Source: Psammoneis japonica
Taxonomy: Eukaryota
Assembly: GCA_008632985.1 (NCBI GenBank)
Contig: QPGO01000097.1
Location: 186,001 to 250,000 of the forward strand
Reading direction: 5' to 3'
Length of the DNA stretch: 64,000 bases
A model generated the notes under the pieces. That model saw only the letters and a list, made by a program, of their open reading frames with translations. It was not told the origin of the DNA and did no database searches. Shown here piece by piece: positions 9,071 through 50,699 of the stretch. Every line of letters starts with the position of its first letter. The stretch's first letter is position 1. The translations under genes and the position numbers were made by a program.

Positions 9071-9189
9071 AGGAAGCCAGGCAAATGGTTCATCAGACCA
9101 CCGAGCACATTTTGTGGACTTCAACACTCTTGCCTCATTTGGAAACCCCTCCATGGATTTGCCCCATTTCTGATTTGGCAACCTTCAAG

Positions 9190-13481: not shown

Positions 13482-13959
13482 CAAACATTGCCATCATTTC
13501 TGCCACACATGATGTCTCCACTTCTGCTCTGGCCTTTGCTCTAGATGCCATTTGGCTCACCTTTGTGACAAAATGACAGAAGAACATTTTTTGCCTTGAG
13601 CAATCTGCTGCATTTTCTGCAACACACACTTGCAAGCCACCTCACTTTGTTTTGTCTTTTGTGCCACTTGACAAACCAAAAAGATTTTAGCAATGGGGCT
13701 GCAACAATGCCAAACAATGTTTTCAAGTGACTTGCCAGCTTGTGCATTTCTCAAGTCTTTGGATCTGTGCAATTTTTGCCATCTTGTCAACAAGCTGCAG
13801 GGTTTGGAATTTTGTGGCCCCTTCTGCTTGTTGTTTCCAGCCTGGATGCTCAGGCAGCTCAAGCAACTTGTGCGCCCTTGCCTTGCACCAACAACTGCAA
13901 AAGCCTTGCCAACTTGTCTCTGATGAGACATGCAAACTGACAAGATTGTGAAAAGTTTG

Positions 13960-15140
13960 ACATTGAGCATGTGGCTGCACCACCCCCCTGATTGTCCATC
14001 GGGAGACACTGCATTGGAGAAGGACAAGGTGGTCTGGGGCAAGAAAAGCAATCACTGCATTGAGCAGAGAGTGCAATCTGCAAGATGCAGAAGGCAAAGG
14101 TGTTTGACATGATCATGAGGCAATGTGCAAAGGCCACTTGTCACAAGCTTGAAAGAGTGGAGTTTGCAAAAATCACAAAGGAGCAGGATGTGATGGCGCT
14201 GTTGAGTGCTCCCAAGTTAATCTTCTTTGTTGATGCAAATGAGAAAATGAACCTGCATGATGTCCAGGTGGTCAAGGCTTGGAAGCAGTTGGCACTCATT
14301 TGTCAAGATGAAGGAGAGAAGTGCTTCAAGGCTGTTGCAGCTGCCAGCTCATGATTCATGAGTGTGGGTGAAGTGGCAAAATCGTCCTGTGGCAGGATCA
14401 TCCCAGAAGAAATTGCCAAGAAAGAAAATGGGTTCAGCAAGGATGATGCTGAGATGACACCTGGAGCAAAGAAAGGAACAAGTTGTCAGTGGCATTGCCA
14501 ATGGAAGGTGCCACAAAGGATCATTGGCTGCATGTTGTGGCTGAAAGACCTGCATTGGTGGCTCACATTGGGGGTTGACATGTGCCCCAGTTTGGCTGAG
14601 GAGGCATTGCATGTGTTGGACACTTGTCAGACCAACAAGAGTTCTGAGGGTGCAAGTTTTGCACAGAACAACAATGAGAAGGTTGTGTGCTGGAAGTGCT
14701 GCAAAGTTGGACACACAAGGAAGATTGTCCTGAGAGTGATCATTCCTTGGTCAAGTTGGATGATGTGGGCCATGGGAGTTGACAGAAAAGTCAACGTGGT
14801 GCTGTGTGGCATGGTTTTCAAGTGTCTTCCTCCTGTGCTTGATTTGCACAAGGTCATTTGATTGTTGACTTGTTTGGAGGAGTGTGTTGAAACATCAGGG
14901 TCAGAGGCAGTTTTTGTCACATGGATAGACAGAGTTGCAGCGCAAGATGCACAGACAATTGTGGACAACATGGCAAGTTTGCTCTCATGACATGGATTGA
15001 GTTGCAGGTCTTGTGCTCACTTTTCAGCTTCTGCTCATGGTTGATGTGGCAATGACAACCAGCAGCAACAGCCAATGTGTTTGCAAGCCACATGATGAGT
15101 TGAGAGATGGTGAGACCAAAGCAATGTGCAACAGTCAGCA
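13960..15140 (+). mobile_element. Degenerate gag-only LTR element: gag, zinc knuckle, PPT and 3' LTR
   Basis: KAKVFDMIMRQC...KLE...DVMALL (copia-type gag), CWKCCKVGH (~14690), then GGAGGAGTG|TGTTGAAAC at 14885. Confidence 0.65.
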
Positions 15141-15827
15141 AGTGGCAAAGCTCCAACAGCTCAACTCCTTTGGTCACAATGATTGCTTGGCATGCATCTG
15201 CTGATGTCCTTGTGAAAACACCCTGCTCTTCATCTGTCTGTGCTGCAATCTCTGACCAGCGCTCACAGGAAATGGAGAGAAAGAGATCTCATGCTGCAGT
15301 TGCAGAGATTTTGATGTGAGGCAAGAAGACCAAGGTTCTTCAAATTCAGCACACACAGAAGGAGGTTTGAGCTTTGAGCTGCAAAAAATCCTTGGAGCCA
15401 TGTGCCACCCAAGTGCAAGGGCCAATCTCCCAGAGCCATTCTTGACAAGGAAGCAACAAAGATGTTTTGTTGTTGGAAGCATTGTGCCCACTCATCCCCT
15501 CCTGGTGGAGAGAACTCAGAAGCTGCTCCCATGAGAGGGTTCTTCATTGTGTGGGTGCTGACCATCACAGCACCACACACAAGCAAATCCCAGAGTTGAA
15601 AGCAAAGCAAGCAAGGCAGAGCAGAGCAGATGAAGCAGGCATGGCACAACACAGCAGCAGAAACATTTTGTTGACATGTTGCACTTCTTGTCAGTCAAAA
15701 ATCAAAACATGAAAATTTTGACACTCTGGGCATGCAAAGACATGCAACAAAAGTGCAGCAGGTGCAACTTGCTTGCAGCACAGCAGGTGGCACCCTGCCC
15801 CATTCATTTGACAGAGAAGAGTGGCAC

Positions 15828-18800
15828 TTTTTCCCTTTTTCTGCATTGAGGGGGTGCTGTGGCTGTGTTGAAAAGAATTTGCTGTGCAGTTTTGCTCTGG
15901 GTGGGTGCTGTGTTCTTGGCTGTGCATGGCCAAGCTGCAAGGGCTTTACATTGTTGCCAAGGCAGTGCCCATGTGGTCAAATCTGTCACCTTGGGAGCTT
16001 TCCAAAAACTGTTCTTGTCACCAACACAAGGTGACAACACTTTGGGCTGTCTTGTCTTGAGCACTGAGCACCAGGGTGGGGCATCCAGGACAAAATTGTG
16101 CAGATGTTCCACATGCCTTTTTGAGCCCCTTGGGCACCAAGCATCAAAACAGGCCAGGACAAAATGATGCAAATGCCACATTTTTGTCCTTTTGAGCTCT
16201 CTGACAAAAATCATGCATGTGAGTTTCACAGCTCACTGACTGGCACACATTTGGTCTTGCTGACTCTGAACTTGCTTGCAAACACATTGCTGATGCCATT
16301 GACCACCATTGCTGCGCCAACCAGGTGCAGAAGCTAAAAAAGTGAGCACAAGTCCCACAACCCAAACTGAGTTTCAAACATCATGAGTTTGCCACATGAT
16401 CATCCACAGTCATCAGCACATCTGATCTTGCAGCTTTGTCTGTCTGTGCTGTGAAAACTGCCTCCAGCCCCAATGTTCCAGCACACTCCTTCACATGGGC
16501 CATCAGCTGATTGGCCTCATTTGCATCAAGGACAGGAGGGCCACACTTGGAATCCAGCATGCCACCCAGCACCACATCGACTCTTCTCCACCGACTCCCA
16601 TGGACCACAGCATCTGACTTTGCTGATGAATGATCATTGTTGGGACAATCTCTCCTCACATGCCCAACCTCAGCATCCAATCTGCTTCTTGTTCCACACA
16701 AAACTTGAGCCATCAGGCTTTTTGTTGGTCTTGCAAGTGTGCCCAACACCCGCAGTGCCTCCTTGGCTGAAATGGGGCAAATGCCAACCCCCAGTGCAAG
16801 TTGCCAATGCAGGTCTTTCAAGACATGCCAACATTCTGTGGTGCCTTCTCCACTGGCATCACCGTTGACAACACTTTCTTGTTTCTTTCTTTGTTCCAGG
16901 TGTCATTGTCAGCATTCTTGTCAAACCCATCTTCTTTCTTGGCAATTTCTTCTGGGACAATCCTGCCACAGGATGATTTCACCACTTCAGCCACACCTGC
17001 AAACCAATTCTTGCATCATTTTCGAAACCAAAAAAAAACCAATTTAAAGTGCTGTCACACCTTTGCCCTGCAACACCGGCACCACTTGATCCACACTTCC
17101 AGTGCACCCTGCCAGGGGTGTGGCAGAAGACAATGCAATTGGCTGGTTGCAGCACCTCCAGATGGAGACACCCAATGGAAATGGCTGGCAATTGTGTGTG
17201 TGCTGCAAAGCACCAAATGTTTTGCTTCCTCAAAACTTTCTTTGAGTCTGAGACAGACCATGGTGATCCAATTCTGTGTTCTGGTTGCAGAGAAAGTCTT
17301 GTGCTCCTCCAAGTTGTCCAACAGAACTCCGGGATCTTTTGCCAAATGCTCCTGGCGTTTTTTTGCATGTTGCTGTCAATTCAGCCTCTGCTTGATGCCT
17401 TTGAGAGGATTTCCTGGTGTCTGCATTGTGTCCATGAACCAACTGGTTGTGCTGACCTGCTTCCAGAGTTCCCACCATTGTGTGTGATCCGATCTGCACC
17501 GTCCAATCTGGGGGTTGCTTGTTCTCCTCTTGGTGCTGGTGGAGGATTCCTGAGCCATGCAAATGGCCTGATTGTGTGACATTGCAAAGAAAAAAACAAT
17601 GGCCATTGAATGCTTGGTGCCATCCAATGTCTGATTGGGCTTCCCAGAGAGCTCTGCATCTGCAATTGATGTCATCAGCATGCATCATTTTGTTTTTCAG
17701 CCAAGCCTCCAAGGAGGCCACAAGAAAATCTTGCAGTGGTGGCATGGTGTCAATCTGATCACAGTGAACCAGAGGCCTTGCAAGAATTTTCTTCTCCACT
17801 CTTTGTTGTCTGGGCATCCAAGGATGTGTGACCCCCATCCTCCACGGGGTTTTTGCAGGTCTGGCAGTGGTGTGGGCAGACTGGATTGCATTGGTTCATG
17901 ATTTCATTTGCAGGGAGAGAACGTTGTGGACCAGCTTGACTGTGTTGACATGTTGCTTGGAGTGTTGCTTGACAAGGACTGCATGAGATTTCCAATTTGT
18001 CAAGTCCGCTGCATCCGGTCTCCACTGGTTGCGCTCAGCTGTGCATTCCAGCAGCTGGGGGGGATGGCTGCATGACGAATCTGTGTCTTCCAGTTGGAGG
18101 TCACTGTGCCATCACCCACTGACAGATGTGAATGGCAATGAGGGAATGGCTGCACTTGAGATGCATCCCTTGGATCCATCGCTGCCAGCTGTGAGTGTTG
18201 AGGAAATAAAAAGTTGCACCAAGGCATCAGGAGACACCAGCAGCTCTACCTTCTCGAAACACTGCTGGTGGGAGGGATGGAGACAGTCACTGAAGGACTC
18301 CGGGGGAACAATTTCTGGTTGCAGAGACACTGAGGTGCGGGGCAGAGCAAAAACCCACCTGCCAATGCAGTCAAATCAACTGGGAAGGATTCCTTGGCTA
18401 GATCTGGAACTGTTTCCATCTCTGTCAGCATTGTTGCTTGAGTGCCTTTGACTGGAAAAATGTCAAACTTTGCATGATTCCGAGCATGCAAGTGTTCCTC
18501 AGAGGGAATGAAGCATGCAGACACACGCACCCTCATTGTAGAAGGAGGGACAAGCCAGTTCCCTGGTGGCTCTTTCAGGAGAAAGGAGTTTGGATGACAC
18601 AACAAGGCACAAAATTTCTGCCAGTGGTGCCAAGCTCTTGTTCCAGGCTTGTGTTGCTCAATGTTGTTCAAGGACAACACTGCTGCAACAAAAGGTTCTC
18701 CTTTTACTTTCACAATGTCCAAGGTGAGACCATCTGCCAAGGCAACGTCAGACACCAACAAAACCTGCAAGCATGATCAACAACAGTTGATCCAGCAAAT

Positions 18801-18977
18801 TTTTCTGTGCAAAAACGCCTGGGACTGCAGAACAATGTCCCACACAAAACTTGGGGTGCTGCAGCACAATCAGAATCCACACACATGCAGACAAAAATTT
18901 TACACATTTTGAGTGATTTGCATGGCACCTTTGCATCTTTTCCCAATTTCAGTGGCATCCTTGATGATTTCCCTTCT
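15828..18977 (-). repeat. Right arm of the large inverted duplication
   Basis: 18961-18977 TTGATGATTTCCCTTCT is the reverse complement of 10334-10350; 15828-15865 matches 13444-13481. Confidence 0.93.
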
Positions 18978-21900
18978 GTCCCTTTCCATCCTCTCCTAGA
19001 ACCGGCCAACAAAGCTCTGCATGCTTTGCGATGGACACACGTGGATGAAACCCATCAATTGGACATTTCAAACATTGGATTGTGCTCTTGCAAATTGGTG
19101 CTTGAAGAGCTGCAGCTGCATTGTGCTCCTCCTGCCACCCAGGAACACAGCAATTGCTGTGCTGACAACTGTCTTCAGATCTTTTGCAACTCCAATGAGT
19201 CCACCAGCAGCTTCATCAAGTGCTTTGAACGCAAGCTTTGCAGTTGCAAAAACACCTGTCTGCCAGTCAAAACTGACTCTGATGTCAGCCTTCATTTTCT
19301 CAGCCAAGTGGGTTGCCATGCACAGTGCAATGTGACAATCAAACAATTTGAGTCCAAATTTTGCACTGCCGCTCACCTCTCAACTTCTGTTGTTCCTCTG
19401 CTCAAGGATGTCAGGCAAACTTTCTGTGACATTGACGAGCAGCATCACAATCAACAACACCACGACTGTCAATCCGGTGGCACTTGCTCACTCTCGAACA
19501 ACGATCATGCTCACCTGGCCACTGCCAAGCACAGCCCACCGAATGGTCAACCAAGACAGCAAGGCCACCCACACAACTCTGGTGCACCCCAAATCTGCAG
19601 CCACTGTCACAAACGGAATCACAACACTGCTGAATGCCGTTCCCGTCTTCATGATGTGAAGAACAGCACCGCCAAACCCAATTTGACCACAAAGCCTGCT
19701 CGGGATTTGAGTGAGGTCATTTGCCATCACTGCAAGAAGGAGGGACACCTTTGACCTCAATGCCCTGAGCTCAAGAAAAGCAAAATCAAACCGCAGCACT
19801 TGTGCCACTGCCACTGGCATGCCAACCAAGACCTGCTGTAACGCTGTTGAACCAAAAAACACCAAAATTGTTTTCTGCATCACTTGTGCTGACCCAGAGG
19901 AAGCTCACTTCGTTGCTTCATCCTCTGTGGACTCTCTGCTGCTGCTTGCATTGTGCCCCCTGTTGAGCTGTGATGACTCCTTGTCCGAGTCATCCTTTGG
20001 CTCCAACCCATCTGATTGTTGCGTGTCACTCTCGACTCATGGATCAATGCCGACCCTTGCTCTGCAGGAGCTGCTGGCAGATTTAGGTGCGGAGTGCAAT
20101 GTTGACAACAACTTGTCCATTGACTCTGATGCCACCGGTCCGCCACCTCTCTTGCACACCACAATTGCAACTCCAGCACACAGACTCGTCCTTGGCCATG
20201 CCCATTTTGCATCATTCCAAGCCTGCCCCAGTCTCACCGCATGCACACGTTGATGCTGCGGCAATCAAACAGGGTGCCCTCATCCCGAAGACATTCGTTT
20301 TCCCTTTGCCCTCACATGAAGAACACCCATTTGGTGCACCTGTCATCTTGACAACTGTGGCGCCAATGTTCCAATCGGATGCGCACGATGCATGCATGCT
20401 TGCAGCACCTCTTGATGCTCTGCCATCAACAGTTTCAAATGATGACAACTCGTTGGTCATTTCAGCACTCAGCACTGACACCTTCAAGCAACCCTTGTCC
20501 TCTCCTTCCAATCAAGTCACCAACAATGTGCTTGATCAGGTTGCTCTCATGGCCAATGGCCCAATCATTGCCAACCTCAGCAACTCCCACGTGACATTGA
20601 TCTGTCAGACATTTGCAGCTGGTTTGTTGACTCTGGTGCCTCGTCTCACTTTGTTTGCCATGATTCACATGACAACCCCGTTGATTGTCATGTTCCTGTT
20701 GTGAATGCCGATGGCACTGCTGTTCATGCAACAAAAGTTGGTTCTGTTGCTTTGCATTTCCATGATGATCAAGGGCACCCAGTCAATCTTGTTCTTGACC
20801 ACATTCATCACACCCCTGGACTCAATCAGAACTTGTTTTTGGCACCTTCTTTCATGGCCAACGAACTTTTTCATGTCAGAAATACAACAAACATCACAAC
20901 ACTCGATTTTGTCAATGGACATGCCTTCAGTTTCCCAGTGCTTCATCACAAAGCTCCAGTCACAATGCAAGTGCCGATGCTGCTCCATTGGATGATTCAG
21001 ACAATTGGTTGATGTCCCCAACACCAGCCAACCCTGTGTCCACACCACAAAAGACCACCGCCATTGACCTTGATCTTGCAGGCCAATGTTTTGGAAGTCG
21101 TTCTTCCCAGAGTCTTTTGGCTGGCACAGTTGGTGAGGTCTGGTGTGACTGCCATGTTGCCCCTGGGACTGACAACTGTCTGGACAATGCACACATCGTG
21201 ACATCCAGAAAAATAAATCATGTTAAATGGGGCCCATCTGAACCAGAACATCCTTTTTCACATGTGTTTGTGGGTGTAATCCCCAACCCACACTCAGTGA
21301 CTCTCACCCCAAAAATGTCTTTTCCACACCACCTTTTCCTGGCTGCCCACAAGGGACACTGCTGTGGAGTTCATGGCATTGAGAGTCCCTCCTCTGGCAA
21401 CATTGTTGCAGCTGTCAAATCATGGGTGGCTGAGGTTCAGGCCACAGGACAGGTGAAAGATGTCAATCATGTCCAAGCTGACTCTGCACAACATTTTCTA
21501 TCCTCTGAATTTGTTGCTTTTGGCGACGCCAATGGCATCAGCCAAGGTCAAGATTGCTGCTCTACGACAGCAAGAGCAAAACGGAGTTTCTGAATGCATG
21601 TGGCAGAGGTTGTCAGCAATGTGATGTGCTGCCTCCTTGTCAATGCACGCCTCTTGGCCCATTTTTACCATCACACCTTTGTTTGCACAGTTGTGATCCA
21701 GAGTGCACTGCTGGCCAAAGGCAAGCACCTGCCTGATGGATCTCTTGCCACTCCACACTTTCATGCTTTCAACAAGCAACTCAAGATTGGCCATTTGAGC
21801 ATTTTTGGCTGCCCGGTCATTTTTGACAGATGCCAACCAGACAACCTGGAAACTTGCCACCCGCTCACCACTTCACAACAGCTTCAATGCCATTCTTGCA

Positions 21901-24240
21901 GCACCCACGTTGGTTTTGCACCTCACAATCCTGGACATCTCATCTGTGTGCCCAAGGGCATTGGAACGAACAATCTGATTGTTGCACATGATGTTGTCTT
22001 CAATGAACACTTTGAATCCTTGCTCGTGCATGACCACACTCCATTCTCCGGTGTGCCCCCAATCCAGAACATCTCCAATGATGCATCTGGCCTTGCCACT
22101 TGTGACGAGATGCCAGCAGACAAGCACACAGGTGCCATCCAAGATTTCCTTGATGTGGACTCACCTGCTTCCCCCCCCAACCTCATTGACACAACACTGG
22201 ACAGCAATGAGTCTGACTCGGCACCACCTCCACCTGAACCTGCTCCCACCAGCTTGCAATGCTCCACTCACTCCAACCTTGGACCTTGGCATGCAAAGGT
22301 CTGTGCACTTTGCCGACAAACGTGCCAAACTGCACACAGCATTGGCTCTCTCTTCCATTGACTTGCTCAAGCAGATTCTATTTGATGACTCACCTTCCAC
22401 AGAAGAATCCCACAGCACATCAGTTGCATCACCTTGGCTTGACTGCAATTGGCACAACTGTCCTGATCCTTTGCAGCAGGCTTTGGAAGCTGTCCAAGCC
22501 ACCACCAACCTCCCTGTTGATGACTGCTTGCCCACTTCTTGCACTTTTAGAGCCATCCTCAGACAACCACCCATGACGCCTGGCTTTGTGCTGTCCCCTC
22601 TGAGCTTGAAAACCTCATTGTGGACAATGAGACTTGTGCTCTTCACAAATGCCCATGTCACAATGATGAGATTTTTGGTGCCACCCTTGCTCTCTGTGCC
22701 AAACAGAAGCCAGATGGTTCCCTCAAGAAACTCAAGGCACGACACTGCACATGCAGCAACATGCAGTGCCAATCTGACAATGACAACAATTGCCCCCCCC
22801 CAATGCCTTGTCGCGAGCCATCAAGATGTTCTTGGCTTTTGCTGCACAAGCAAAATGACACATCAAGAATGGTGATTTTGCAAGTGCTCACCTTCAGGCT
22901 CCCGCTTGCAGCCATCTCTTTGTCCACTTCAATCCAATCCTGAAGCAATGTTTTCTGGAATGCACGGAACATTTTGGTGTTCCTTTCAGACTCAAGAAGG
23001 GCATGCATGGGACCATCTGGAGTGGCCTTTGGTGGTCAACCAAGCTCTCTGAATTTTTGATTGACCAAGGATGCACCAACTCAAAGGCTGATCCCACCTT
23101 CTTTGCCAAGCACTTTCCTGATGGATCCTGTCTCAACTTGATTTTCTGCACTGATGATGTGATCTATTTTGGATTGAACGATTGAGCTGAAAAGGATTTT
23201 GAGAAGCTCATCAAGTCCAAGTGCAACATTGCATTCACTGGTGACATTGCCTGGTTCCTGCAAATGCACACTCACAGATGTGAGGATGGATCTTTCTCCC
23301 TTGACCAACACCAATGCATTTGCAATCTGCTCAAGCAATTTCTGAGTCTGGACTCACCTTGGGGCAGCCCCAGCTTTCAGGACACTCCAGCTCCAGTTGA
23401 TTGCGTGCACTCCAAGAAGAACCAACCAAAAGACAAAGCTGATTCCAGTTCCATGGCAACTGAGTGTCCTGGTCTCCATTTCCAATCCACTGCCTGTTCC
23501 ATCTTGTGTCTTGCCCACAACATGCATGCTGACATTTTGTGGATCACCTGCAAGCTTGCAAAGGCTTGCACCAACCCTGGCACAAAGGATTTTGATGCTG
23601 TTGTTCACCTTTTTGGTTGTCTTCAAAAACATCAAGACCTTGCCATCAAGTTCTGTTTTGATCCCACCACAAGCCCTGTTCATGTGATTTGCGAGGCCCA
23701 CAACATCAGTCATTCTGAGTTTGTGCTTTTCACTGATGCCAGCTGGCAGGACTGTCCAGACACTGCAAAGTCAACCATTGGATTTATGACCTGCTTCAAT
23801 GGGGCAATTGTGGAAGCCAGTTCCACTGTCCCGACCCCTGTGGCAATGTCCACTGCAGAATCTGAGTGGATGGGTGCCCACACTGGTGCAATGGCTGTTG
23901 CTCACCTGTGCATGTTGGCCCATGACTTTGCCTGCCTTGGCACCCGCCACTGCTCCATCAATTCCCAGTGTCTCACTGCTGTCCCTGCCATCATCATGTT
24001 GGACAATCAGGCCACAGTCTGGAATGGCACAGAATGGCCAACAGACTCAACACACAAGACACATCGAGCAATGTTTCCAATGTGTCCATGAGGGTCAGCA
24101 ACAGGGTCATCACCTGCTTGTGTGGGTCCCCGCTGAAAGTCAATTGGCAGACTGCCTTACAAACACTCAGTGTGCTGAAAAAATTTGGGTCATGGTTGAT
24201 CATGTCCTGTGGTGCCTTCCCACTCACATGTTGTCATGAG
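18978..24240 (+). mobile_element. Degenerate Ty1/copia retrotransposon gag-pol (pseudogenised)
   Basis: Zinc knuckles CSHCHKRNH and CHHCKKEGH; protease WFVDSGASSH (20620-20649); integrase QADSA..FLSSEF and QEQNGVSE; RT KKLKAR, DFASAHLQA, LKKGMHG, CTDD; RNase H FTDASW, STAESE, DNQA, QLADCLT; order PR-INT-RT-RH. Confidence 0.92.
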
Positions 24241-24400
24241 TCTTTTCCCCGTTCCCTTTTTCCATCGGAACCTCATGACCGAACATCTTCTGCTCCGTTT
24301 TTGATTGAAATCAATCGCAGCTCCAATCTGTGTTGTCAACCTGTTGTGCAATCCATCCAATTTCAACATCACATTGACTCTGAGACTGGCTCAGAGTCTG

Positions 24401-25027
24401 TCACAACATCTCTCCTGTTTGTGCACGGACTTGATCACCCAAGTCACTCACAGGCAAAACCAGTTCTTTCCAGTTCTCCATCAACTGCTGTGCAGTGGGA
24501 TTGGCTGCAGACAAAGGGGCATCACCCCTCATTTGGAGGCCATGCTTCCTTGAAGGAAGGCAGAAAGGGAAGACTCTTGTCTGCATTGTGGAAGACAGGC
24601 AGCATTGATGGCTGGGCCTGCCTTGCAGAAAATCTGAATTGTCGACTTTGGTCATGGAAGTGTCCTCAGGAGGGTTGTGTGTGGAAGCACCAGCTGGAGT
24701 GGATGAAGCAGGCTTTTTACATTGAGGAGAGGTGGGGGCATCTGGAACTGAGGAAGCAAAGGTCTCTTGAATCATTGTCTGCAGCTGAGCAGCAAGAGCA
24801 GTTTGCAACCATGCAGCAAGATCATTTTTCAACTGGGTGGCACAAGTGGAGATGGGTTCTTGATGCTTCCGTTCGAGGGTGGCAAAATGCTTCCATTGAT
24901 CCTGTTGGTTTTTAAGAACAAGTTGTTGCAGTTCAGCAATTTCAATTGACTGATTTGACATTTCTGAGACAGGGACAGCACCAGGGATGACTGCTCTGGG
25001 TGTGTTCCTCAGAACTTGGGGGAACAA
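24401..25027 (-). mobile_element. Possible LINE ORF1-like coiled-coil fragment
   Basis: Tyr-free 208-aa ORF with a heptad-like stretch followed by a Pro/Ser-rich SPQCKK tail, inside the TE block; family assignment is a guess. Confidence 0.3.
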
Positions 25028-25199
25028 GTTGGAAAACTGCCATGTGCACCCACACTTTTGGAGCTAGATTGGCTTCTGATTCAGCAGATGCAGGAGCTGC
25101 AGAGCCGGTCAGGAAAATGTCAGAAATGTTTCAGACACCCAACTCTGAACACCAGTGGAAGAGATGGGTTGAACAGTGTTGGACATGTTGTTGCTGATT

Positions 25200-26344
25200 C
25201 TGGGAATCATGGGTTTGGGCTGACTCTCTGGGATTCCTGCCTTGACAGTGATCACATTGAACCATTCCAGAAGACATTTGGAGATGCAATGTTTGGCCTG
25301 ATGAAAATGATCCTTGTCAACCAGAATGTTGCACCTTGGGATGGCAGCAAGATTCTTGGATGGTGCAACATCTGTCACTCCTGTGACCCGCACAATTGCA
25401 TTGGACAGACAGAACAAAATTGCTTCAGCACAATGAAGCACTGGAATGACATGGGTCTTGACACTTGTTTTGCATTGTTTTTACACTGCTTTGTCAAAAG
25501 CCACTGGTTGGTCACAATGCCAGTGGGATGAGACAAGTGCAAGGAGGGGGTGTTCCTTCAGAGCTTCCAACAAGGCATGAATCATGTCTTTGGCTTGGTC
25601 ATGGGGAGTTTTGACAGCATGGAAATTGGCATGCAAGGATTGGTCTTTCAGAGATGTGGCAGAGACGTGTTCCAATGAACAGCTTCATGCATTGCCCCAC
25701 AACCAAGTTGGATGCCTTTGCCTTCTGTGTCTTGTAGATTGCATCATTCTGTTTCACATGGTGGTTGTGCCGCTGCTTGCCCCAAACTGCCTTGTCCTTC
25801 TCCTCTGACACAGTGTCTCCCAATGGTTGGCTCTGGTCTTTTGGCATGCTCTCCTGTCTCAGAGACACCAGCACCTGGTGCATCTCTGACATGCTTGCCA
25901 ATCTTTTCCATTGTTTCCATGCAAAACCATGTTCCTGTCATCCCAACTTGACAAAGGCGCGGCACACACCCACTCTTTGAAATGTTTTGTGCTGCCGCAC
26001 TCAGCTGTGTCCTTGCCCCCATTTCTGGAACTCACACTGGAGTGACATGGCTCACCAACATCTGTGCACTCTGTCTCAGCTTGCCAACCAGTGTGTTTTT
26101 AGTCTTGCAGACTCCAAACTCACCGCATGGCTTGCAAACACACATGTTGCCAACACACTGTTGACTGCTGCTGCCATGCATGTTGGCCGGGTGCAGAAGC
26201 CAAAAAGTGAGCACAAGACCCACAACGCAAACCAAGCTGCAAACACAAATTTGTCATGTCATTCACAATCATCTTCAGCACATCTTGCACTGCAACTTTG
26301 TCTGTCTGTCCTGTGAAAACCACCTCTGGCCCCAACGTCCAACA
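25200..26344 (-). mobile_element. 5' LTR plus degenerate gag of the same gag-LTR family
   Basis: Minus strand starts TGTTGGACGTTGGGGCCAGAGG at 26344; EKDKAVWGK...KAKASNLVVGQC is homologous to 14000-14130. Confidence 0.65.
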
Positions 26345-26424
26345 GCCAATGGCCAAAAAAGGAGCCAAGAAGGTTGGAGTCCAGAGGCTGAAATGAGGGC
26401 ATCAGAGAGCAAATGGACTTTGCT

Positions 26425-27095
26425 GCTGCCAAGGGACAGAAGGATCAAAGGTGAAACCTCTTTTTTCCCTCCAAGGGACAAAAGGTTTGGGTGCAAAACC
26501 TCTTCGCCCTCCAAGGGAAGATGGAATGCTAAAAAGTGAGAGCTTCTGCCCCCAAGGAAGAGAAGGTGTCAATTTTCAAGCAAAACTTTTTGACCCTCCA
26601 AGGGACAAAAAGGTTTTAAAGACAAAACCTTTTCACCCTTCAGAGGGCTTGGAAGCAAAACCTTTCACACCCTCTGTCATCACACCCTCCAAGGGATGGA
26701 GAGTGGAGAGGGTTGTTCGAAGGAGCTGAAGCACCGCCTTCAAATCCTCCATCCAGAGGGAGACAAAAGAGGGTTTTCAAAGTGTGAGACCTTTTTGCCC
26801 CCAAGGGACAGAAGGCACCCTCCAAGGGATGGATGGCCAGAAAGTGAAACCTTTTTGTCCTCCAAGGGACAAAAGGTTTTTGAAAGTGAGGCCTTTCGCC
26901 ACCCAACTGGGGGCAGAAGGTCAAACTTGAAACCTGCTCACCCTCCAGGGAGGGACAGAAGGTTTTGGGGTAAAAGTTTTTCACCCTCCATGGGATGGCA
27001 GGCCCCAAATGAAAAACCTTTTCACCCTCCAAGAAGAGGGGCAGATGGTTTTTAAAAAAAGTGAGGCTCCTTTTCACCCCCCAAGAAGAGCATCA
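26425..27095. repeat. Degenerate ~40-bp tandem array with palindromic core (AAACCTTTT-n-CCCTCCAAGGGACAAAAGGTTTT)
   Basis: About 15 recognisable copies of a CCCTCCAAGGGA-like core at roughly 40-bp spacing. Confidence 0.85.
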
Positions 27096-27123: not shown

Positions 27124-27354
27124 TTCTAGCCCTAGACTCCAAGCCAAGCAATGAGAGGAAGCTGTGGCTGGGTGAGTCGCGGGGGTCATCGCGGAGGTAG
27201 ACTAGCGAGGGACAGACGGGAGGCCGAGGACGGAGGACAGACGGACGCGACGAGATCCCAGACATGACCAATCCACGCATTGTTCCCTTGGCAGTCAGCA
27301 TCAGAGGGGTGCAACCATGGTCCACTGCAGCAACCATGTCTCATTGCAAAATTA
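27124..27354 (+). repeat. Split direct repeat A1
   Basis: Matches 35578-35808 with 3 differences found (27132, 27259, 27332). Confidence 0.95.
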
Positions 27355-28214
27355 ACACTCTGTTGATGATTGCTAAGGATCGGGGAGCGATGTGCGTGCC
27401 CCAAACGTTCATTTTGTCAAATTCTGCGCTTGTGACAGAGCAATTTGACTGGGATTTCGGAACCGACTCATGAACAGTCGTTGTTTCCGACCCCTCTCCT
27501 TTTTACTGTGCCAATGCGGCAATGCCTGCTGTTGAGAGGACGGTCTCCTCTGTGCAACCAAATGCCACTTTCCTGATGACCGCTCAGTGCACGGGTTGTT
27601 CCCTCGCGGTGGCAATGGCCGCATGCCATCGGCCATGGTTGACTCCCTCGCTGGGACGAGGGTGGAACCATTGACACATTCACAAATGTGTGCCTCCTGA
27701 CAATGGCATCTCTCTTTCCTGCACACCAGTCATTCAACTGCCAGTCCCGCACGCTTGGCGATCGACCATGTGATGTGTCCATCTGCGCCACGAATGTTTC
27801 GATGCAGGCACGGAGCGTGTTGGGTCCTCCAAGTGCCAGTGCCTGCTTAAGAGCAACCGTTGCACAGGGTTTGCGGTTCACATTGTTTGCAGCCATTGAA
27901 AATTTTGAAAATCCAAATTAAACACCATGAGGAATCGTGTCGTGTCATCTCCGTTTTAATCATGATTTTCGAAAGTCATGGACAGGATGCTCCACCTGCA
28001 GAGTTCACGGCCGGACGCTGTGAGAGGGACTCCTCATAATTTCCGAAGTCAGCCATTTGCAACGAGACCGTGAAGTCATTGTTCAACGACCATGTTTGCT
28101 CCTTCCGCCACTGCTGTCCAGCGGGTTCGTGGTGCTGCCAACCAGCACCACACGACAGCGTTTCCATTCTCTGACGAGAACGCAATGGTCCTGGCTTCTG
28201 CGCTTTGACCAGGT

Positions 28215-30947
28215 GTGAACCATGAGGTTCACCACGCTGTCGCATCTGATCCGATGAAAGTGACCCAGTTTGCATTCATGCACTCAAAGCGGATCATGAT
28301 TCTCACCCGCCCTCAAGTGTTCACTTCGACGGCAGGGACTGCCTCTGTCATTGGGAGCTTGTCGGACGAGATTGGGAGTCATGCCCCAGTCTCTGTCGCT
28401 CTCGACTCCTTTCGAGCATCGATGACTTCGCTCCTCACGTTGCGATCGGTCACGGCTTTCCACCTTCCCAAGTTGGATCAGGCGCCGGATGCTGTTGATG
28501 GTCCAACAACTTTGGACGTGTTCCAGCCGCACGTGAACCAAATCGTGCACAAAAACGACATTTGCGCGATTTTTGCGCGGTCCCTAACTTACGATCGAAC
28601 TTTCACCACCAAAAGTATAGATTTATCCAAATGTGAATGTTTTGCAACACTAACAAGACTCGTGTGAGTGTTGCAATGTCATTGTCATTGTGCTGTCTAT
28701 GTTTTCCATTGCGTTAAAAGATTCGCAACACAACGGATGATTTTCGGCGAAAACATTGCCGTCATTTGGATGTTGCCTGAACACATCTTTCTACAATGCC
28801 ACTTGGTGGTTTTCTACCTACAAAGAAATCTCAGTGTAAATCCACTGACGTACAATCAGCATTGAGTCAACTGAGGAAGTTTGTGACACATGTCCCATGA
28901 GGACTTGAATGCCCCACAAAAAACTGTTTAAATGTTCATGCTCTAGACGCCTGTAAAAGCCAATCCGCTCAAGCATTTTTGTGAAAATGCTACATGCACT
29001 AAAAGATACATAATTTACACTCAAAATCGATTGTCGTTTTGTGCGTCACCTGGGACTGGAACACGTCTTTGCTGGAGGACGACCGGGTTGCATCCATGGG
29101 GCGTCTACACTTCCCGCCACCTGCGGCTGCGGACGACCATCCGCGGATTTCTGTGCCACCGCCATTCCCACCTTTGCCGCCAGGCAAGACTTTCCCCAGT
29201 GGCATTCCTGTGGATGAGCCCACTCCGGAGTTGGACGCGGATTTCCCTCTGGGAGCTGCATGGAAGCGTGGCATGCAATGCATTGCAGCAAACAACGACG
29301 AGCGCTCGGTTGCGAAGGGCGGCCCTTTGTTCGATGCGAGCCAGATTGACGATGCCGCGGATTTCGATGGTTTCGACATCGCGAATCGTCTGTTGCAAGT
29401 GGATGATGTGAGCATCCTGGCGCCTGTCACGGACTCATGCCATTCGGTCAAGCAGTCTGTGAAGGCTTTTGATGCCCTGGCATGGGGCTCCCCAGGAGCA
29501 GATGCTGATGCGGATGATGCAGCGGCGCCGGCAGTCGGTGGTGGTGGTGACAATGGCGGCATGACAAACAACCAAATTGTGGCGTTGTGTCAAGGGATTG
29601 CTGCAGCACCCCGTCCCCCTGCTTGGAAGGAAGAGGAGCGTCTCGAGGTTGCCACTGAGCATGCCCGGCGCTGGGGGTTGGTTGCGGGGTGTGTTGCTCC
29701 TCCGCCTGGTGGAATGGGTGAAGCGACGTTTGTTCTTGGAGAACTGCGCCCAGAATTTGTGGTGGCACTCAAGGTCTGACAAATTTGTGACCACCCGCAA
29801 ATTTTTGGATCTGGTTGCCCAAGTCTTGGCTGGGTTGTGTACGAGCAGTTCCTTTCTGGACAAGTCGGCGCACTTGTCGCACGAGGTGATCAATGAAGCG
29901 TTCACCACGAGTGTGCGTTCGTTCCACATGCATGCACAGCCTGCAACCTGCAGCGTGCAGGCTCTGCTGTCCAAGTTTTCCATTGTTCTTCTTCTGGAAC
30001 CTGACACGGCGACTTCGACGTGGGAGACAATCATGGATGAACATTCCAGTCTCCCGCTGCAGGAGCAGTGCAGTCAGTCGAAGTCGGACGTGGAACTGTC
30101 TGCCCTCAAGTCGTCAGTTCTGTGTGCTCAGGGAAGGATCAACACGCCGAAGGACATCACTGCTGCAGCATGTAACCTTCGTGCTTTTGGACCATGTCTG
30201 ACACCGGACTTCGACCAATCTGCGTTGTGGAAGTCGGTCAAGTCGCACCACGACGTGCTTGACTCGGAGCGTGGCGCCGAGTGGCTGGCACGTAATGCCA
30301 AATCACCCCAGGCATTGGTGAATGCACTGTTGGACATTCAGAACATCCTGGCGGAGTGTTTGATTGTCGGCAACCAGCCAGCGCATTGCAAGGCGATTGG
30401 CGCTGGGGACACTGTAGATCCGAGGATCTGCGACCAGGTGAGTGTGATTGCGAAGCAGCTTGCTGCGGAGTTGCAGACAGCAATCTCGTCGGGCCGCCCG
30501 GGATGCTGCAACACCATCACGGACGTTGCCAGAAAGCTCATTCCGGCATTGACCAAGTCAGACAAGTCTGCCCCGGTGGCAGCTGCAGATGGTGAGGCAT
30601 CTGAACCTGCCAAGAAAAAGCAGAAGACGCTTCTTTCGGATGAAGAAAAGGAGAAGCGTAAGAAGCTTGGCATCCTTGTGTACAGTGGCAGTGGCAAGCC
30701 GCCGCAGACCTGCCCAGTCTATGCCAAGAAGTCTCGTGACTCAACGGCAGAAGAGCGTTGCTGCACAAACTTCATGATGGTTGGGCGTTTCTGTGCCAAT
30801 GCGAACTGTCCGAAGCCTCACATCACGAATGCTAAAGTGTTGGGCAATGAAAAGGAGCAGCAGTTCTGTGGCTGGGTTAAAGAGACTGAGGGACTCAGTT
30901 TCGCACCTGGAAAAGGCCCTGCTGGTGAGGCTGCTGTCCAAACATGA
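28215..30947 (+). pseudogene. ORF1/gag of the YR retrotransposon, interrupted by a MITE and a frameshift near 29770
   Basis: ORFs 28215-, 29039- and 29577-30947; removing the MITE joins DGPTTL|LEDDRV in frame; C-terminal CTNFMMVGRFCANANCPKPH finger. True start uncertain. Confidence 0.75.
28515..29067. mobile_element. 553-bp MITE (non-autonomous DNA transposon)
   Basis: Perfect 12-bp TIR GACGTGTTCCAG/CTGGAACACGTC; inner inverted GCACAAAA(A)CGACA; 4-bp TSD TTTG (28511-28514, 29068-29071); AT-rich interior. Confidence 0.88.
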
Positions 30948-31156
30948 GCGACGCTCAATTGGAGACGATCATCGGTTGTGACACCATCCTCTGCTGTTTC
31001 TGTCTCTGATGGATGGCATGCACCAACGAACTAATCCTTTGTTTTGATCTTTGTGTGTTCATTTGTCACTGCAATGACGAAGCATTGCACAATGCGAGTC
31101 CAATCGTTCCTCTGTTGTCCGATTCATTGGCTTCTAGTTTGGGATTTGATCCTGTG

Positions 31157-33881
31157 ATGTCGTCAGGTCTGGCCGTGGAACCGTCACAGGCAGACATTGA
31201 CAAAGCAATGGGGAGCAAGGTGGATCCCCTTCCCGAACCGGAAGGTTTCTACCCAGTTCTGTCACAGGTCACGAAGGACACTTTCGGGTCACCACAAGAC
31301 TTGGTTCCCACCATCAACAATTCGTTTTGCAAGGCGGAGCGCGAGGCATGGAAGAGCACGTGTCTCCCGACCTCGGTTCAAGCAGCATTGGACAACCATT
31401 TGGCAAGGAATCAACATCGCAGTGTTTTCTTGCAGAAGCGTGTTTGCGACATGTGCTGATGCCACTGCGGAAGTCGGGGTTTCTGACTGTGTTGGAATGG
31501 ATGCAGTTTGCGGAAGCCATCCCTGAGGTCACGGAGTTCACAGCTCTGTTGGCGAAATGTGGTGATGTCAACTTCGGAGAAATTCGAGGATGCGCCAAAG
31601 ATTGGAAGAATGTCACCAGTGTGAGCCAGGAACATGTGGATGTGGTGTCCGCAGCGTTGCTGCATTTGAACGGGGATGCAGCTGCTGCTGTCCGGTGGAT
31701 TGGCGGTCCTCACATCGGACAGCACCGCCATGTTGATGCGATTGAGCGTTTTTTGAGTGGAGTGCTCGATGAGCAGCATGTGAAGCCACTGATTGCCATG
31801 TGCCGACACGGGTCGCCGTCATTCTGCAATGCAACATCAACGGAATCGAATTTCCAAGCGTGCTTCCAGCATGGCAGCCATTTGAGTGTCGACTCTGATC
31901 CAGAGAAAATGCTTAAAACGGTGGTGAAAGACGCGAAGAGGGGCCACACAATCCCATTTGATCGGCGCTTGATTCCGTTTCTGCTCAACTGTCATGTAAT
32001 GCCTCAAGGGATCGTTGATTTGGACAAACCGTGTGAGACTCCTCGCCCTGTTTTTGACAGCTCTTTTCGCCCAGAGAAGTGGAATGTGGCCATCAATGAT
32101 TGGATTTCCAAAGATGCGGAACCTCTGCTTTCGGACGAAAGCGCAGAGATGGATCTCATGAAATGGATCTACAACTTGCGCATTTTGCATCCGATGGAAG
32201 AAATCATGATTGGAGACGACGATGTCGGGGGGGCTTTTCATGACAACAAGCACCCACCAAACCTGGTTTCGATGCATGCCAGTGTCCAGGCAGGGTTTGG
32301 GACATTGCAGACTGGAAACAATTTTGGGGACAACATGAACCCATCAAATTGGCAAGTCATTGCAACAGCACATCAGCAGCTGGCGCGGATGCCATGGCAT
32401 TCATCGGAAGCAATTGAAATGACTGCTCCGTTCATGCCGGAGATCCGACATTGCGAGGCACCCAGCGATGAGGAAATTGCAGCATTTGCACCTGCAACTG
32501 CAGATTCCGCTAACAGAGGTGTACACGATGAAGAGGGTTTTCGATTGGCGCCACCTCACACGCATCATGTTGACGACAACATGCATGCGGACGTGAGGGA
32601 GCACCTGCCTCGGACGTTGATGGCCAGTGCCCTCTCCCTGTTCTGTGTGTTGGGTTTTCCGCGAGAGGAAGTCCCATTGAGTCTCAGCATGGAGAAACTC
32701 AACACTCTGTTTGGGCACACCCGCCGAGTGGTCGGGCGGGCCTTTAATTCTTGTGCGCCAGCGATTGGTGTGCTGGACTACAAAAAGGAACAGCTGATTG
32801 AAATGCTTGCAGTGTGGATTGAAACTGTTGTCACTTGCGACCTGGTGGACGCCACTGGTCTCAATGGTTTGCTGAGAATCACACAAGATGCACGCGTTGG
32901 GCACGTCCTCTTTTTTTCCAACTTCAGAACGAAATGCGAGCCGCCTTCAAACAATGGTTCTACACAGTTCGGCGACAGTGCAAGAAAGAAGTGAGGACGG
33001 AACAAATTCTCCACCAGCTGCTGAGTGCTCAGCACAAGCGAGTTGATCAGATCGTTGCGAAAGAGATGGCGGCATCACTCTGGCAAACGCGAGCGAAGAT
33101 TCGCATGTCGGACGCGCTCCGACACTCCCTCGTCCTGATTGGGCATTGTCTTCAGACAATGCCTGACTCTTTCTCAGAATGCGTTGGTTTCATTGCACCA
33201 AGAGACCCCAACATCCACAGTTGGGGGGACGCCTGTGCGGACTCTGGGGGAGGTGGGTTCTGCCCCACGCTCAAGTTCTGGTTTGACATCGGATGGAGCA
33301 AACGCGTTCTGCACGGGGTCAATCATGCTCGGCCATCGACACAAGGGCATCTCCATGTCAACCAGTTGGAATTCCTAATTGTGGTTGTCCAATTTGCAGG
33401 AATTACAATGAGACTGCACAGTGTGATGAGGCAACAAGCAGAAAGTTACTTTCCGAATGGGGTGCCCCCTCGGCCAGTTGCACTTGCCGAATGTGACAAT
33501 GCCACCTCCGTGAAATGGAGCAACAAGGCATCTTCTACGTCGCGCAATGCTCAGGCCATCATTGCCTTTTTCTGTGAACTCCTCCATGACTCAGGGATCG
33601 GGCATGACGCTCGATGGCTCGCGGGGATGCTGAATGAGTTGGCGGATGCCATTTCGCGCCAACCCAACTTTGCTCTTCCTCTTTGCATTCGTTGTGCTCA
33701 GCTGTGTCAGACGTGGCCTGTGATGAAGGACGGGGACTGTTTCCTCCCGAGTCCCGAGCTGCTGCAGGGCCTCTGCTCTGCTCTGTTCTCAGTGTCAACA
33801 GCGGCGCCAGTCAAGATCCCAAGAAATTTGGGACAGTTCGTTCGCGCAGAATCCATTGCTTCTGGTTTGCCCATGATGTGA
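31157..33881 (+). pseudogene. pol (reverse transcriptase and RNase H) of the YR retrotransposon, frameshifted
   Basis: PRPVFDSS, DDDVGGAF, NFGDNMNPSNW, HVDD (32566); RNase H WGDAC, HVNQLEF, CDNATSVKW, GMLNELADAISR. Confidence 0.88.
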
Positions 33882-34954
33882 ATTGGCACAAGGACAATCT
33901 GGGGATGACAATGCAGAACCTTTCCCTGGAAAGGTGCCAATGCATGATGGCAATCCATGCGTTGCATCTCGCTTCAGGGTGCACATTGTTCTGCAAGCAG
34001 ATCAAGCTTGACACAACAAAGCAGCACCTGCTTGCAGTGGCGACGTTCTGCGCGTTGTTCAGCAAGGTTGCAAGGGACACACAGAAGATGAACCCCATGG
34101 AGAAGGAGTTCTGTCCCCTGCTCAAGAATGTGTTTGAACATGTGCAGGAGTGTGAGGACGAACCTGACCGCCGTGAGCCTGTCACCCCGGAGATGACACA
34201 AGAGCAGATCCGCCGTGGGGAGGTCGCAGCAGAAAAGGAGCCGGATGGTCTCGTTGCCATCCAAGGCGATTGGAGCCAAGTGGCGCTGTCTGGTGGCTTG
34301 CGGTGTGGTGAACATGCTCAGTCAAAAAATGAGAAAAGCCCGCAGCGCCTGCAACAAAATTTCAAGAACGACACCGAAGCATTTGCTCTGCGTGACGTTC
34401 GAATCCAAACGAAGGACAGGAAGCGCCGCAAAGGAGCGGATGTTGCCGATGCCCCACTGAGCAGCATTGATCTGATGTGGATCAAGTTCCGCACTCAGAA
34501 GAATGGGGACAACGGTCAAGAAATCAAATTCAAACACAAGGCATTGTCGAAGATCAGCTGTGTCCGAGCGATGCACCGGATCACATGCCGTTTTGCATGG
34601 TTGCGGGGACGGAACGATCATGAGACACCCTTGTCGACACACAAAAGTGAGAAGGACGGTCTGCAACTGCTTGCTGCAAATGACATTGCGAAGGAACTTT
34701 GGGGCATTGCTGCAAAGCTGCATTCCCTGCACCCGGCACGAGACGCCGATGCCATCAAGCGTTGGACTGGCCACTCGCGCCAAATTGGAGCATGCTGCAT
34801 GTGTCACAGCATGGGGATGTCGTCAGTGGACCTCAAACGTGAGCTCCGCTGGAGATCGGACACATTCATGAGATGCCTGCGGAACACAAACATCCTTGCG
34901 GAGGCAAAGAACGACGCCATTGACAAGGCTGTTTCCCTTCCAGACTTGTTCTAA
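33683..34954 (+). pseudogene. Tyrosine recombinase of the element, catalytic Tyr replaced by Cys
   Basis: GLRCGEH, FRTQKNG, WTGHSRQIGA and LRWRSDTFMRCLR (TGC at 34874 where the catalytic Tyr is expected); zero Tyr in 423 aa. Confidence 0.9.
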
Positions 34955-35361
34955 ATTGGGGCTGTGCCCAACAAAGTGGCCTCCCAAACTCAGGGTGTGA
35001 AGACGGATGTCATGCGACCCGTTCCCTCTCTGGGCGATGTCAGCTCACACACTGTTGACCTTGTGTGTCAATAAATTCCGATTTCAAATTCGAAATTTTC
35101 ATTGACAACTTCATGCTGTAGATGACACACCTCAGTGAGGAGGCAGTGCGAAAGTTGTGACGATTTACCGCCTTTTTCTTCCATTTCTGCCGTGTTCCCC
35201 TCTTTTTTGTCTGTCTTTCTTCTCTTTTTTCTTTTTTTTTTCTCTTTTTTTCTTTTTTTCTTTTTTCCGGTGGATCTCACCTCCGATGACATGGGCGCGG
35301 ACGTGCGCACGCCTCTGGTGTGTTTCACTGTCAGGCGCATGCGCTGCGTCGGCTCGACATG

Positions 35362-35577
35362 GGCTGTTTCGGCACAGTGCCGGATATCCTCTATTTTGTC
35401 TAGGCTACGTTGCTGTAGACCTTCAGACTCGCATATCCGGGTTCCTATTAGCTACTACTTCTACGGTGCAACTACTACTGTCTATTGTACACCCTAGATC
35501 TAGTGCTGTGGATCACTGTTGCACGTCATCGAGGTGCTGATCCGCTGAGGCGGTGGCCGGGAATCCCATGGGGATTC
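35362..35577 (+). repeat. Split direct repeat B1
   Basis: Identical by eye to 35829-36044. Confidence 0.95.
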
Positions 35578-35808
35578 TTCTAGCCGTAGACTCCAAGCCA
35601 AGCAATGAGAGGAAGCTGTGGCTGGGTGAGTCGCGGGGGTCATCGCGGAGGTAGACTAGCGAGGGACAGACGGGAGGCCGAGGACGGAGGACAGACGGAC
35701 GCGACGAGATCCTAGACATGACCAATCCACGCATTGTTCCCTTGGCAGTCAGCATCAGAGGGGTGCAACCATGGTCCACTGCAGCGACCATGTCTCATTG
35801 CAAAATTA
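35578..35808 (+). repeat. Split direct repeat A2
   Basis: Matches 27124-27354. Confidence 0.95.
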
Positions 35809-35828
35809 TCCCACCTCATTCCCACCCT

Positions 35829-36044
35829 GGCTGTTTCGGCACAGTGCCGGATATCCTCTATTTTGTCTAGGCTACGTTGCTGTAGACCTTCAGACTCGCA
35901 TATCCGGGTTCCTATTAGCTACTACTTCTACGGTGCAACTACTACTGTCTATTGTACACCCTAGATCTAGTGCTGTGGATCACTGTTGCACGTCATCGAG
36001 GTGCTGATCCGCTGAGGCGGTGGCCGGGAATCCCATGGGGATTC
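35829..36044 (+). repeat. Split direct repeat B2
   Basis: Identical by eye to B1; separated from A2 by the 20-bp spacer TCCCACCTCATTCCCACCCT. Confidence 0.95.
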
Positions 36045-50600: not shown

Positions 50601-50699
50601 TGGCACTGCGTCATCTCCAAAGACACAAATCCACAGTCTGAAAAAAAGCACTCACTTTGTGTTTTTTATTTGAAACCCAAGATCCTGTTGATTGTCAAG

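Follow-up and report, generated by a model that had tools for sequence, protein, structure and literature searches.

An Ngaro-like retrotransposon nearly emptied of TA

The 64,000-nt stretch of DNA analysed here (the window; positions 186,001-250,000 of contig QPGO01000097.1 in the 91-Mb assembly of the diatom Psammoneis japonica) carries an Ngaro-like tyrosine recombinase (YR) retrotransposon whose open reading frames (ORFs) are nearly free of TA dinucleotides (Table 1). Expressed as observed over expected (o/e), TA stands at 0.56-0.62 and CG at 0.94-1.02 in the three genic blocks of the window; in two islands with sharp edges (~6.5-35.3 kb and ~44.6-54.7 kb), TA o/e is ~0.05-0.14 and TG+CA o/e reaches 1.5-1.8. 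TA-erased DNA corresponds to foreign or mobile regions, with host genes spared except for one duplicated gene inside the second island. The element ORFs have TA o/e of 0.083 and CG o/e of 0.775, and debris of older transposable elements (TEs) upstream (6900-26900) has 0.047 and 0.155, respectively. An earlier note on this DNA had described debris short of both dinucleotides, as we find, and an element with abundant CG, which is true of the ratio but passes over the ~25% of CG already lost.

Table 1 Features of the window discussed in the text (TA and CG values are o/e unless given as counts; MITE, miniature inverted-repeat transposable element; RT, reverse transcriptase)
Feature	Positions	Strand	Remarks
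Old TE debris (copia-like pieces, inverted duplication)	6477-27123	.	TA 0.05, CG 0.16; surviving TA avoid ATAT/ATAC
Ngaro-like YR retrotransposon	27124-36044	+	split direct repeats
A1 split direct repeat	27124-27354	+	5 TA, in resistant or near-resistant contexts, mostly CTAG
5′ region of element	27355-28514	+	TA 0.09, CG 0.84
MITE, younger insertion	28515-29067	.	terminal inverted repeats, 4-bp target duplication; not in sister copy
gag-like region (assigned by position)	29003-30947	+	two frames, 29003-29779 and 29565-30947; 2 Tyr
RT-like ORF (motif-based)	31201-32994	+	HVDD motif; His or Cys in 6/13 Tyr-majority columns
RNase H-like ORF	32823-33881	+	different frame from RT; too short for a methyltransferase domain
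YR ORF	33638-34954	+	0 Tyr; catalytic-Tyr column is Cys (TGC)
B1 repeat	35362-35577	+	17/17 TA kept
A2 repeat	35578-35808	+	split direct repeats
B2 repeat	35829-36044	+	same sequence as B1; ~240 bp upstream of apparent choline-transporter-like host gene start
Second TA-erased island	44579-54720	.	44.4-47.5 kb: TA 0.14, CG 0.70; 48.6-54.3 kb: TA 0.05, CG 0.20
Duplicated host methyltransferase-like gene inside second island	47501-48360	-	converted vs paralogue: 28/33 TA, 22/42 CG

The A1-[ORFs]-B1A2B2 layout of the element is likewise present in a sister copy on contig C118. Split repeats, gene order and the lack of a methyltransferase domain after RNase H (the ORF ends ~80 aa past the last RNase H motif) are shared with Ngaro-type YR retrotransposons, for which excerpts of two accounts give A1-ORFs-B1A2B2, the order gag / RT-RNase H / YR and no methyltransferase domain (PMC8547959, PMC4157794). 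The split repeats place the end of the element at 36044 rather than at 35050, as had been proposed, and its description as structurally complete holds at the termini only: gag and RT-RNase H are each broken across two frames, so this copy is dead, while one relative keeps RT-RNase H as a single 898-aa ORF. Pfam returned no match for the element, nor for five ORFs in two intact relatives; RT and RNase H were recognised by motif, the YR aligns with 6 database proteins, its profile weakly matches Cre (E=0.006), and the likeness to Ngaro comes from layout. A1 and A2 show 3 differences, one of them outside TA/CG sites, and the empty-site joint for the younger MITE is 28511-29070. Immediately 5′ of A1 lies a tandem array of degenerate ~40-bp units (26451-27080), poor in TA and CG.

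The near absence of tyrosine claimed for these ORFs was borne out: counted from stop to stop, Tyr makes up 2/460 residues in the gag-like region (0/258 in its first piece), 2/597 in the RT-like, 2/352 in the RNase H-like and 0/438 in the YR ORF, i.e., 6 Tyr in 1,847 aa (P = 1.7e-14 for six or fewer given an expectation of 2.6%; 1.9-4.5% in 8 host ORFs of the window). The loss of TA extends to every codon phase (6/5/12 in 1,769 codons of the element vs 85/109/132 in 3,180 host codons), which identifies a DNA-level effect and not Tyr avoidance. Over three ORFs, 11 of the 21 Tyr-majority columns now hold His or Cys. In the catalytic-Tyr column of the YR, 70/76 aligned relatives have Tyr, whereas the window copy has Cys and the C118 copy His: one TAC codon, broken in both possible directions. 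The HVDD motif of the RT was considered as a TA-damaged YxDD and ruled out, since the 38 aligned TA-rich relatives carry HVDD in 10 cases, FVDD in 24 and YVDD in 2.

TA loss follows insertion

We compared the window element with the C118 copy (92% identical) over the aligned stretch 29067-35361. TA is shared at 14 sites, present only in the window copy at 15 and only in C118 at 10, and 103 sites are TG in one copy and CA in the other; CG is shared at 255 sites and one-sided at 86 and 85. Once the ~14 doublets attributable to CG are subtracted, ~216 TA (o/e ~0.64) are estimated for the ancestor of the pair, of which 13% and 11% survive, independently, in the two copies, compared with 75% of CG. 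The corresponding hazards are 1.0-1.1 per A at TA, 0.145 per C at CG and 0.0045 for other transitions; had TA decayed at a rate equal to that of CG, 162 would be expected to remain, against 29 seen. TA>TG/CA thus runs ~7x faster than CpG decay in the YR pair (~13x in the MITE copies treated below), in line with the order of speeds put forward earlier, and outpaces background transitions by a factor of at least 200 (a time-averaged lower bound).

The B repeats tell the same story: each of the two in the window retains its 17 TA, whereas in C118 one has lost 16 and the other 14, changed independently to TG or CA. Furthermore, 80 related metagenome loci have a median TA o/e of 0.71, with 2 below 0.3. 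Independent loss in both copies and TA-normal relatives argue that the element was not born TA-free, the outcome that would have told against the earlier proposal. Native TA avoidance, codon selection or an assembly or base-calling artefact has a negligible chance of accounting for the pattern: TA is mildly low in all of this DNA (genic o/e ~0.6), but the doublets, B repeats and relatives run against native avoidance, and contigs from a public run (possibly the assembled sample) match the TA-poor ORFs, with 16/16 checked differences being CG vs TG/CA. The alignments thus indicate a TA-erasing process that is real, strong and post-insertional; almost certainly, the element arrived with normal TA, each copy then lost 87-89% of it as A:T>G:C at TpA, and CpG decayed 7-13x more slowly.

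TA is exhausted before CG

The earlier note had suggested setting terminal-repeat age against dinucleotide content. As an age proxy we used terminal-repeat differences outside TA/CG sites, compared with internal TA and CG o/e (Table 2); L004 and L010, which lacked usable pairs, were left out, as were two divergent self-matches of C118 that are not terminal repeats. TA is at its floor by ~0.5% divergence and CG drops later. Among 1-kb tiles (n=410, biased to TE loci), 61 combine TA<0.15 with CG>0.6 and 0 combine TA>0.15 with CG<0.3.

Table 2 Terminal-repeat divergence and internal dinucleotide content (L006, L007 and L009 represent a single insertion, and so do L013 and L014; for L003, the two repeats may have arisen by tandem duplication)
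Copy	Differences outside TA/CG	TA o/e	CG o/e
Window copy	1/447	0.08	0.78
C118 copy	1/220	0.08	0.75
L006-L009	0-2 in ~450	0.13-0.18	0.85-0.87
L012	2/234	0.15	0.76
L011	4/243	0.03	0.25
L013 and L014	~3%	0.06	0.23
L003	8/177	0.03	0.19
L005	22/215	0.05	0.12

The locus itself repeats the series: the MITE inside the element has been hit at 28/54 family TA sites and 1/25 CG sites (52% and 4% lost; TA o/e 0.45, i.e., partly kept), its host element has lost 87% and 25%, and the debris stands at o/e 0.05 and 0.16. Private changes in three allelic copies comprise 43 CG losses, 8 TA losses and 4 CA>CG, showing that CpG decay (CG>TG/CA) continues once TA is spent. This component is directional (43 losses vs 4 gains), and other C contexts are not raised. 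CA>CG was considered as a major second target and dropped, given the polarised counts and the fact that 6/15 MITE cases trace to one TA/CA-polymorphic column. Collectively, these series indicate that TEs of this diatom lose most TA soon after insertion, at roughly ten times the pace of ordinary CG decay. Being position-dependent (see below) and saturated by ~0.5% background divergence, TA loss is a poor clock. The 3.1-kb inverted duplication in the old debris (10334-13443 and 15865-18977; ~96.5% identity, many TG<>CA doublets) is younger than most TA loss and proved of little use. The second island spans the same range of TA/CG states as the first.

TA and CG losses are spared and incurred together

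Position within the element matters for both changes. At the 3′ end of the window copy, which adjoins a host gene and includes the TA-retaining B1-A2-B2 block (o/e 1.11), 40/40 TA are kept and 2/31 CG lost (p=0.024); at the 5′ end of the C118 copy, also adjoining a gene, 17/~50 TA are kept and 0/33 CG lost (p=1.5e-4). DNA within ~0.7 kb of host genes thus escapes both TA and CG loss, the spared ends being opposite ones in the two sister copies; sparing is positional and covers both changes. A1 was considered as a 'protected' repeat as well and ruled out, its few TA lying mostly in resistant contexts.

The MITE family (at least 324 candidates, of which 40 scored copies, L025-L064, were analysed) shows the coupling copy by copy. 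TA hits per copy, of 54 sites, are bimodal, with 15-45 in 16/40 copies (heavy) and 0-6 in 24/40 (light), and CG loss follows (31/800 in heavy vs 7/1200 in light copies). Transversions and other C>T changes are equal in the two classes, with C>T at CA/CC/CT not raised. The Spearman correlation between TA and CG loss is 0.70 over the 40 copies and 0.73 within the 16 heavy ones, so the two depletions scale together across copies, in part the outcome that the earlier note had named as telling against its proposal. Per site, the hazard among heavy copies comes to 1.02 for TA and ~0.08 for CG (ratio ~13). Heavy copies are scattered over the tree and sit in CG-richer flanks (flank CG 0.66 vs 0.45, p=0.0013; 13/16 heavy vs 8/24 light in CG-rich flanks, p=0.004). 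All 40 examined copies have TA-poor surroundings (TA o/e 0.02-0.29 over 500-bp flanks) and none sits in genic DNA, reflecting insertion preference or purging from genes.

Of the two separable clocks proposed earlier, the difference in chemistry and speed is therefore supported and independence is not, given that losses co-vary among MITE copies and that the ends beside genes escape both. Judged from these sequence patterns, the two losses seem likely to obey one on/off condition, and TA erasure and CG decay are probably under the same silencing control. We likewise consider it likely that MITE bimodality is a context switch; that it reflects two insertion waves is possible but doubtful.

Sequence context and strand use

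In heavy MITE copies, 553/1728 adenines are hit at TA vs 0.8-1.2% at AA, CA and GA. The rate peaks with A at -2 (other bases 0.34-0.43) and depends on the +1 base (T 4.7, C 3.0, G 1.7, A 1), so that TA survival ranges from 6% at ATAT and 15% at ATAC to 87% at CTAG and 90% at TTAA; TA loss thus favours ATA*Y over YTAR. Outcomes are 281 TG vs 264 CA, evenly mixed within copies, a pattern expected from many rounds of change and not from one segregating burst; processive single-strand bursts were also considered and ruled out, as strand clustering was not seen (p=0.75). Opposite base polarity and a context preference of its own bear out the earlier suggestion that TA loss is mechanistically distinct from CpG decay, with both ending in TG/CA.

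The same fingerprint was recovered elsewhere. Among 110 metagenome pairs of at least 80% identity, the most asymmetric were chosen, and one-sided TA numbered 49 vs 2 (L123 vs L112) and 69 vs 2 (L121 vs L125), with CG balanced; ATAY survival in these pairs is 0/36 and YTAR survival 31/50 (p=2e-10). TA erasure thus appears not to be unique to the Psammoneis japonica genome. Other metagenome YR loci (L111, L148, L175, L176) have TA o/e of 0.10-0.37 or tiles of 0.15, with CG intact.

A proposed single targeting state with two chemistries

The overall best explanation, to which we assign a probability of roughly 55%, is one targeting state acting through two chemistries. Its first steps are those shown above: the element inserted with ~216 TA, A:T>G:C at TpA then removed 87-89% of them in each copy, on both strands evenly and with ATA*Y preferred, and CpG decays toward TG/CA 7-13x more slowly and past TA exhaustion. 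The shared condition would be silenced chromatin with DNMT5-type CG methylation, in which 5-methylcytosine (5mC) deaminates passively; CG>TG/CA confined to CpG in TE DNA fits such deamination. In the same chromatin, a host DNA adenosine deaminase (TadA/ADAT-type or an ADAT1/ADAR-like paralogue) would convert the adenine of TpA to hypoxanthine, read as G, with hits accumulating across many divisions rather than in a single burst. Adenine deamination is the simplest chemistry for TA>TG/CA, and we lean slightly toward such an enzyme as its cause. The outcome would be permanent inactivation via the lost catalytic Tyr, a defence resembling repeat-induced point mutation (RIP) with opposite polarity, comparable to a proposal for Bigelowiella (see below).

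The genome contains a DNMT5-like locus (C76; Tudor, weak methyltransferase and SNF2 domains), and the available part of one study reports that DNMT5 methylates TEs in diatoms (PMC9998398), which would explain a slower CG>TG/CA restricted to TE DNA; such 5mC deamination is unable to yield A:T>G:C at TpA. Deaminase-type genes include ADAT2-like, TadA-like and two A_deamin genes, with 9 matches to the dCMP-deaminase family; a search for AAG/MPG gave no match. An amphioxus ADAT2, also cited in the Bigelowiella preprint discussed below, is reportedly a DNA editor (PMC10354150). One A_deamin paralogue (L096, G000:C79) is ADAT1/ADAR-like; its top 120 homologues carry only the A_deamin Pfam family, and the named ones belong to centric and pennate diatoms. 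A search across the dCMP-deaminase family, the A_deamin genes and the homologues of the C79 paralogue brought no outstanding candidate. For comparison, excerpts give U-A-C-G as the TadA recognition sequence (PMC10586758) and UAG as the ADAR2 hot spot (PMC10661471), the latter being a weaker context than TAY in Psammoneis japonica TEs. A 491-aa frame elsewhere in the genome (L069, G000:C79) fuses a deaminase domain with a 2OG-Fe(II) dioxygenase.

Several observations weigh against one targeting state with an adenosine deaminase. The deaminases found resemble ordinary tRNA/RNA enzymes, none being singled out, and the second A_deamin paralogue (L096) is widespread in diatoms. Endonuclease V is present in the genome. 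An A lesion and a T lesion look identical in sequence, and the CG-methylated silent state is a postulate, with a DNMT5-like locus in its favour. AA>AG is slightly raised (1.2% in heavy vs 0.37% in light MITE copies). The MITE equal-age test is weak, with private changes numbering 48 in 16 heavy and 63 in 24 light copies (1.14-fold, confidence interval 0.77-1.69), and a gap of just ~1.3 additional changes per copy would suffice for age to explain the split by itself; the copies analysed are the top 40 matches, of 324 candidates, to a query that was itself eroded, and 8/24 untouched copies lie in CG-rich flanks.

That low power leaves some room for two independent clocks running from insertion at fixed rates, with MITE bimodality as two transposition waves. 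The terminal-repeat series fits one fast and one slow clock, and TA and CG hits would correlate within heavy copies under such clocks as well; we nonetheless think this account unlikely, as same-age DNA within one element differs (the intact 3′ end vs 13% survival inside), CG is spared in the same zones as TA and the sister copy shows the reverse arrangement, heavy status follows flank CG, and the light copies do not form a clade of recent, nearly identical sequences (1/276 light pairs identical; nearest neighbour light for 13/16 heavy copies). An error-prone polymerase copying or repairing silenced chromatin, e.g., after 5mC damage, and placing G opposite T would directly account for co-location with CpG decay and for AA>AG being up ~3-fold in heavy copies, chiefly at AAT. 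Pol eta shows a WA>WG bias with TA:AA ~2:1; the ~30-50-fold preference for TA over AA (553/1728 vs 24/2000) lies far beyond this and transversions are not raised, making such a polymerase decidedly unlikely.

A thymine lesion, whether oxidation (5-hydroxymethyluracil or 5-formyluracil mispairing with G) or T>C amination in the RTAT context, is formally equivalent, T>C before A being A>G after T. We know of no enzyme with such a DNA context acting on thymine, and a TET/JBP search gave no match, a weak result given that control genomes were equally silent; we regard this route as very unlikely. Still less probable is a true RIP analogue, i.e., homology pairing at a sexual stage via RID/DNMT4-like proteins. 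Fungal RIP likewise inactivates repeats through dense transitions at a particular dinucleotide, the DNA hit here includes both repeats and a duplicated host gene, several single-domain C5 methyltransferases are present, and diatom DNMT4 groups with RID in the accessible part of PMC9998398. However, RIP is C>T and creates TA, whereas TA is here destroyed, and RIP is triggered by duplication, whereas homology alone is here insufficient: 24/40 high-copy MITE copies are nearly untouched at equal homology, and the perfectly repeated B1/B2 are spared. The mutated region of Bigelowiella natans, moreover, is given in the preprint excerpt as single-copy and mutated in clonal lines. A C5 DNA-methyltransferase gene of the host, intact on C59 (L080), has several broken, TA-erased lookalikes within TA-poor islands (L083, L084, L085; G000:C301, C297), which may ride on a mobile element. 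A RID/DNMT4-like class is conceivable for these genes.

Relation to other systems and significance

The closest counterpart is the TpA>TpG/CpA hypermutation of integrated viral DNA (nucleocytoplasmic large DNA viruses and virophages) in 11/15 clonal lines of B. natans (bioRxiv 10.64898/2026.01.13.699255, Mettrop et al.). The portion of this preprint available gives a de novo rate of ~6e-7 per site per generation, ~1000x background, partial TpA depletion (rho 0.45), RT and DDE domains among TpA-poor coding sequences, and ADAT2 as an agent proposed without proof; an ADAT2-like gene is present here too. In both systems, A:T>G:C is limited to TpA, regional and in silent foreign DNA. The process is not always on in B. 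natans; the bimodal MITE copies would fit either intermittent activity or two age classes. B. natans is a rhizarian with viral inserts, whereas here retrotransposons, MITEs and duplicated genes of a diatom are hit, and depletion approaches saturation (o/e 0.03-0.08). Coupling to CpG decay, gene-edge sparing and the ATA*Y context, seen here, were not met in that portion of the account. Literature searches, which mostly left subscription journals outside their coverage, found no report of TpA hypermutation in diatoms, and excerpts of PMC11884799 and PMC12344493 held no mention of TpA. So far, and within these limits, such a process has been reported only for viral inserts in this one unrelated alga.

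Our results extend the mutation process from viral inserts (one preprint) to transposons of a second algal supergroup, with saturation over large parts of a 91-Mb genome. As a tentative and less likely generalisation, diatoms, and perhaps algae of the SAR assemblage, might possess a dedicated nuclear deaminase of DNA adenosine that dense CG methylation draws to mobile DNA soon after its silencing. It would erase TpA over many mitotic divisions, fall quiet once CpG decay removes the mark, and be conserved enough for a shared ATA*Y fingerprint. If true, this would be a natural chromatin-guided adenine base editor serving genome defence, and a natural enzyme making A>G in chromosomal DNA would be relevant to both genome-defence biology and base editing. 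Handles on the mechanism come from the context preference, the equal use of both strands, the escape of gene-adjacent DNA and the link with CpG decay, and as diatoms are editable, a knockout search for the enzyme is feasible. In genomes of this kind, dating TEs, deriving consensus sequences and annotation will all give wrong results if TA and CG sites are left unmasked.

Further features of the assembly

Next to the duplicated methyltransferase-like gene, 48395-48745 holds two short repeats (~155 and ~200 bp) found in at least 6 other loci, where they are TA-intact and often beside genes. The assembly has 24 matches to silicon-transporter genes, which together with homologues named from diatoms mark it as that of a diatom, and a single 1,511-aa frame (G000:C38:226311-230342) carries three silicon-transporter domains.

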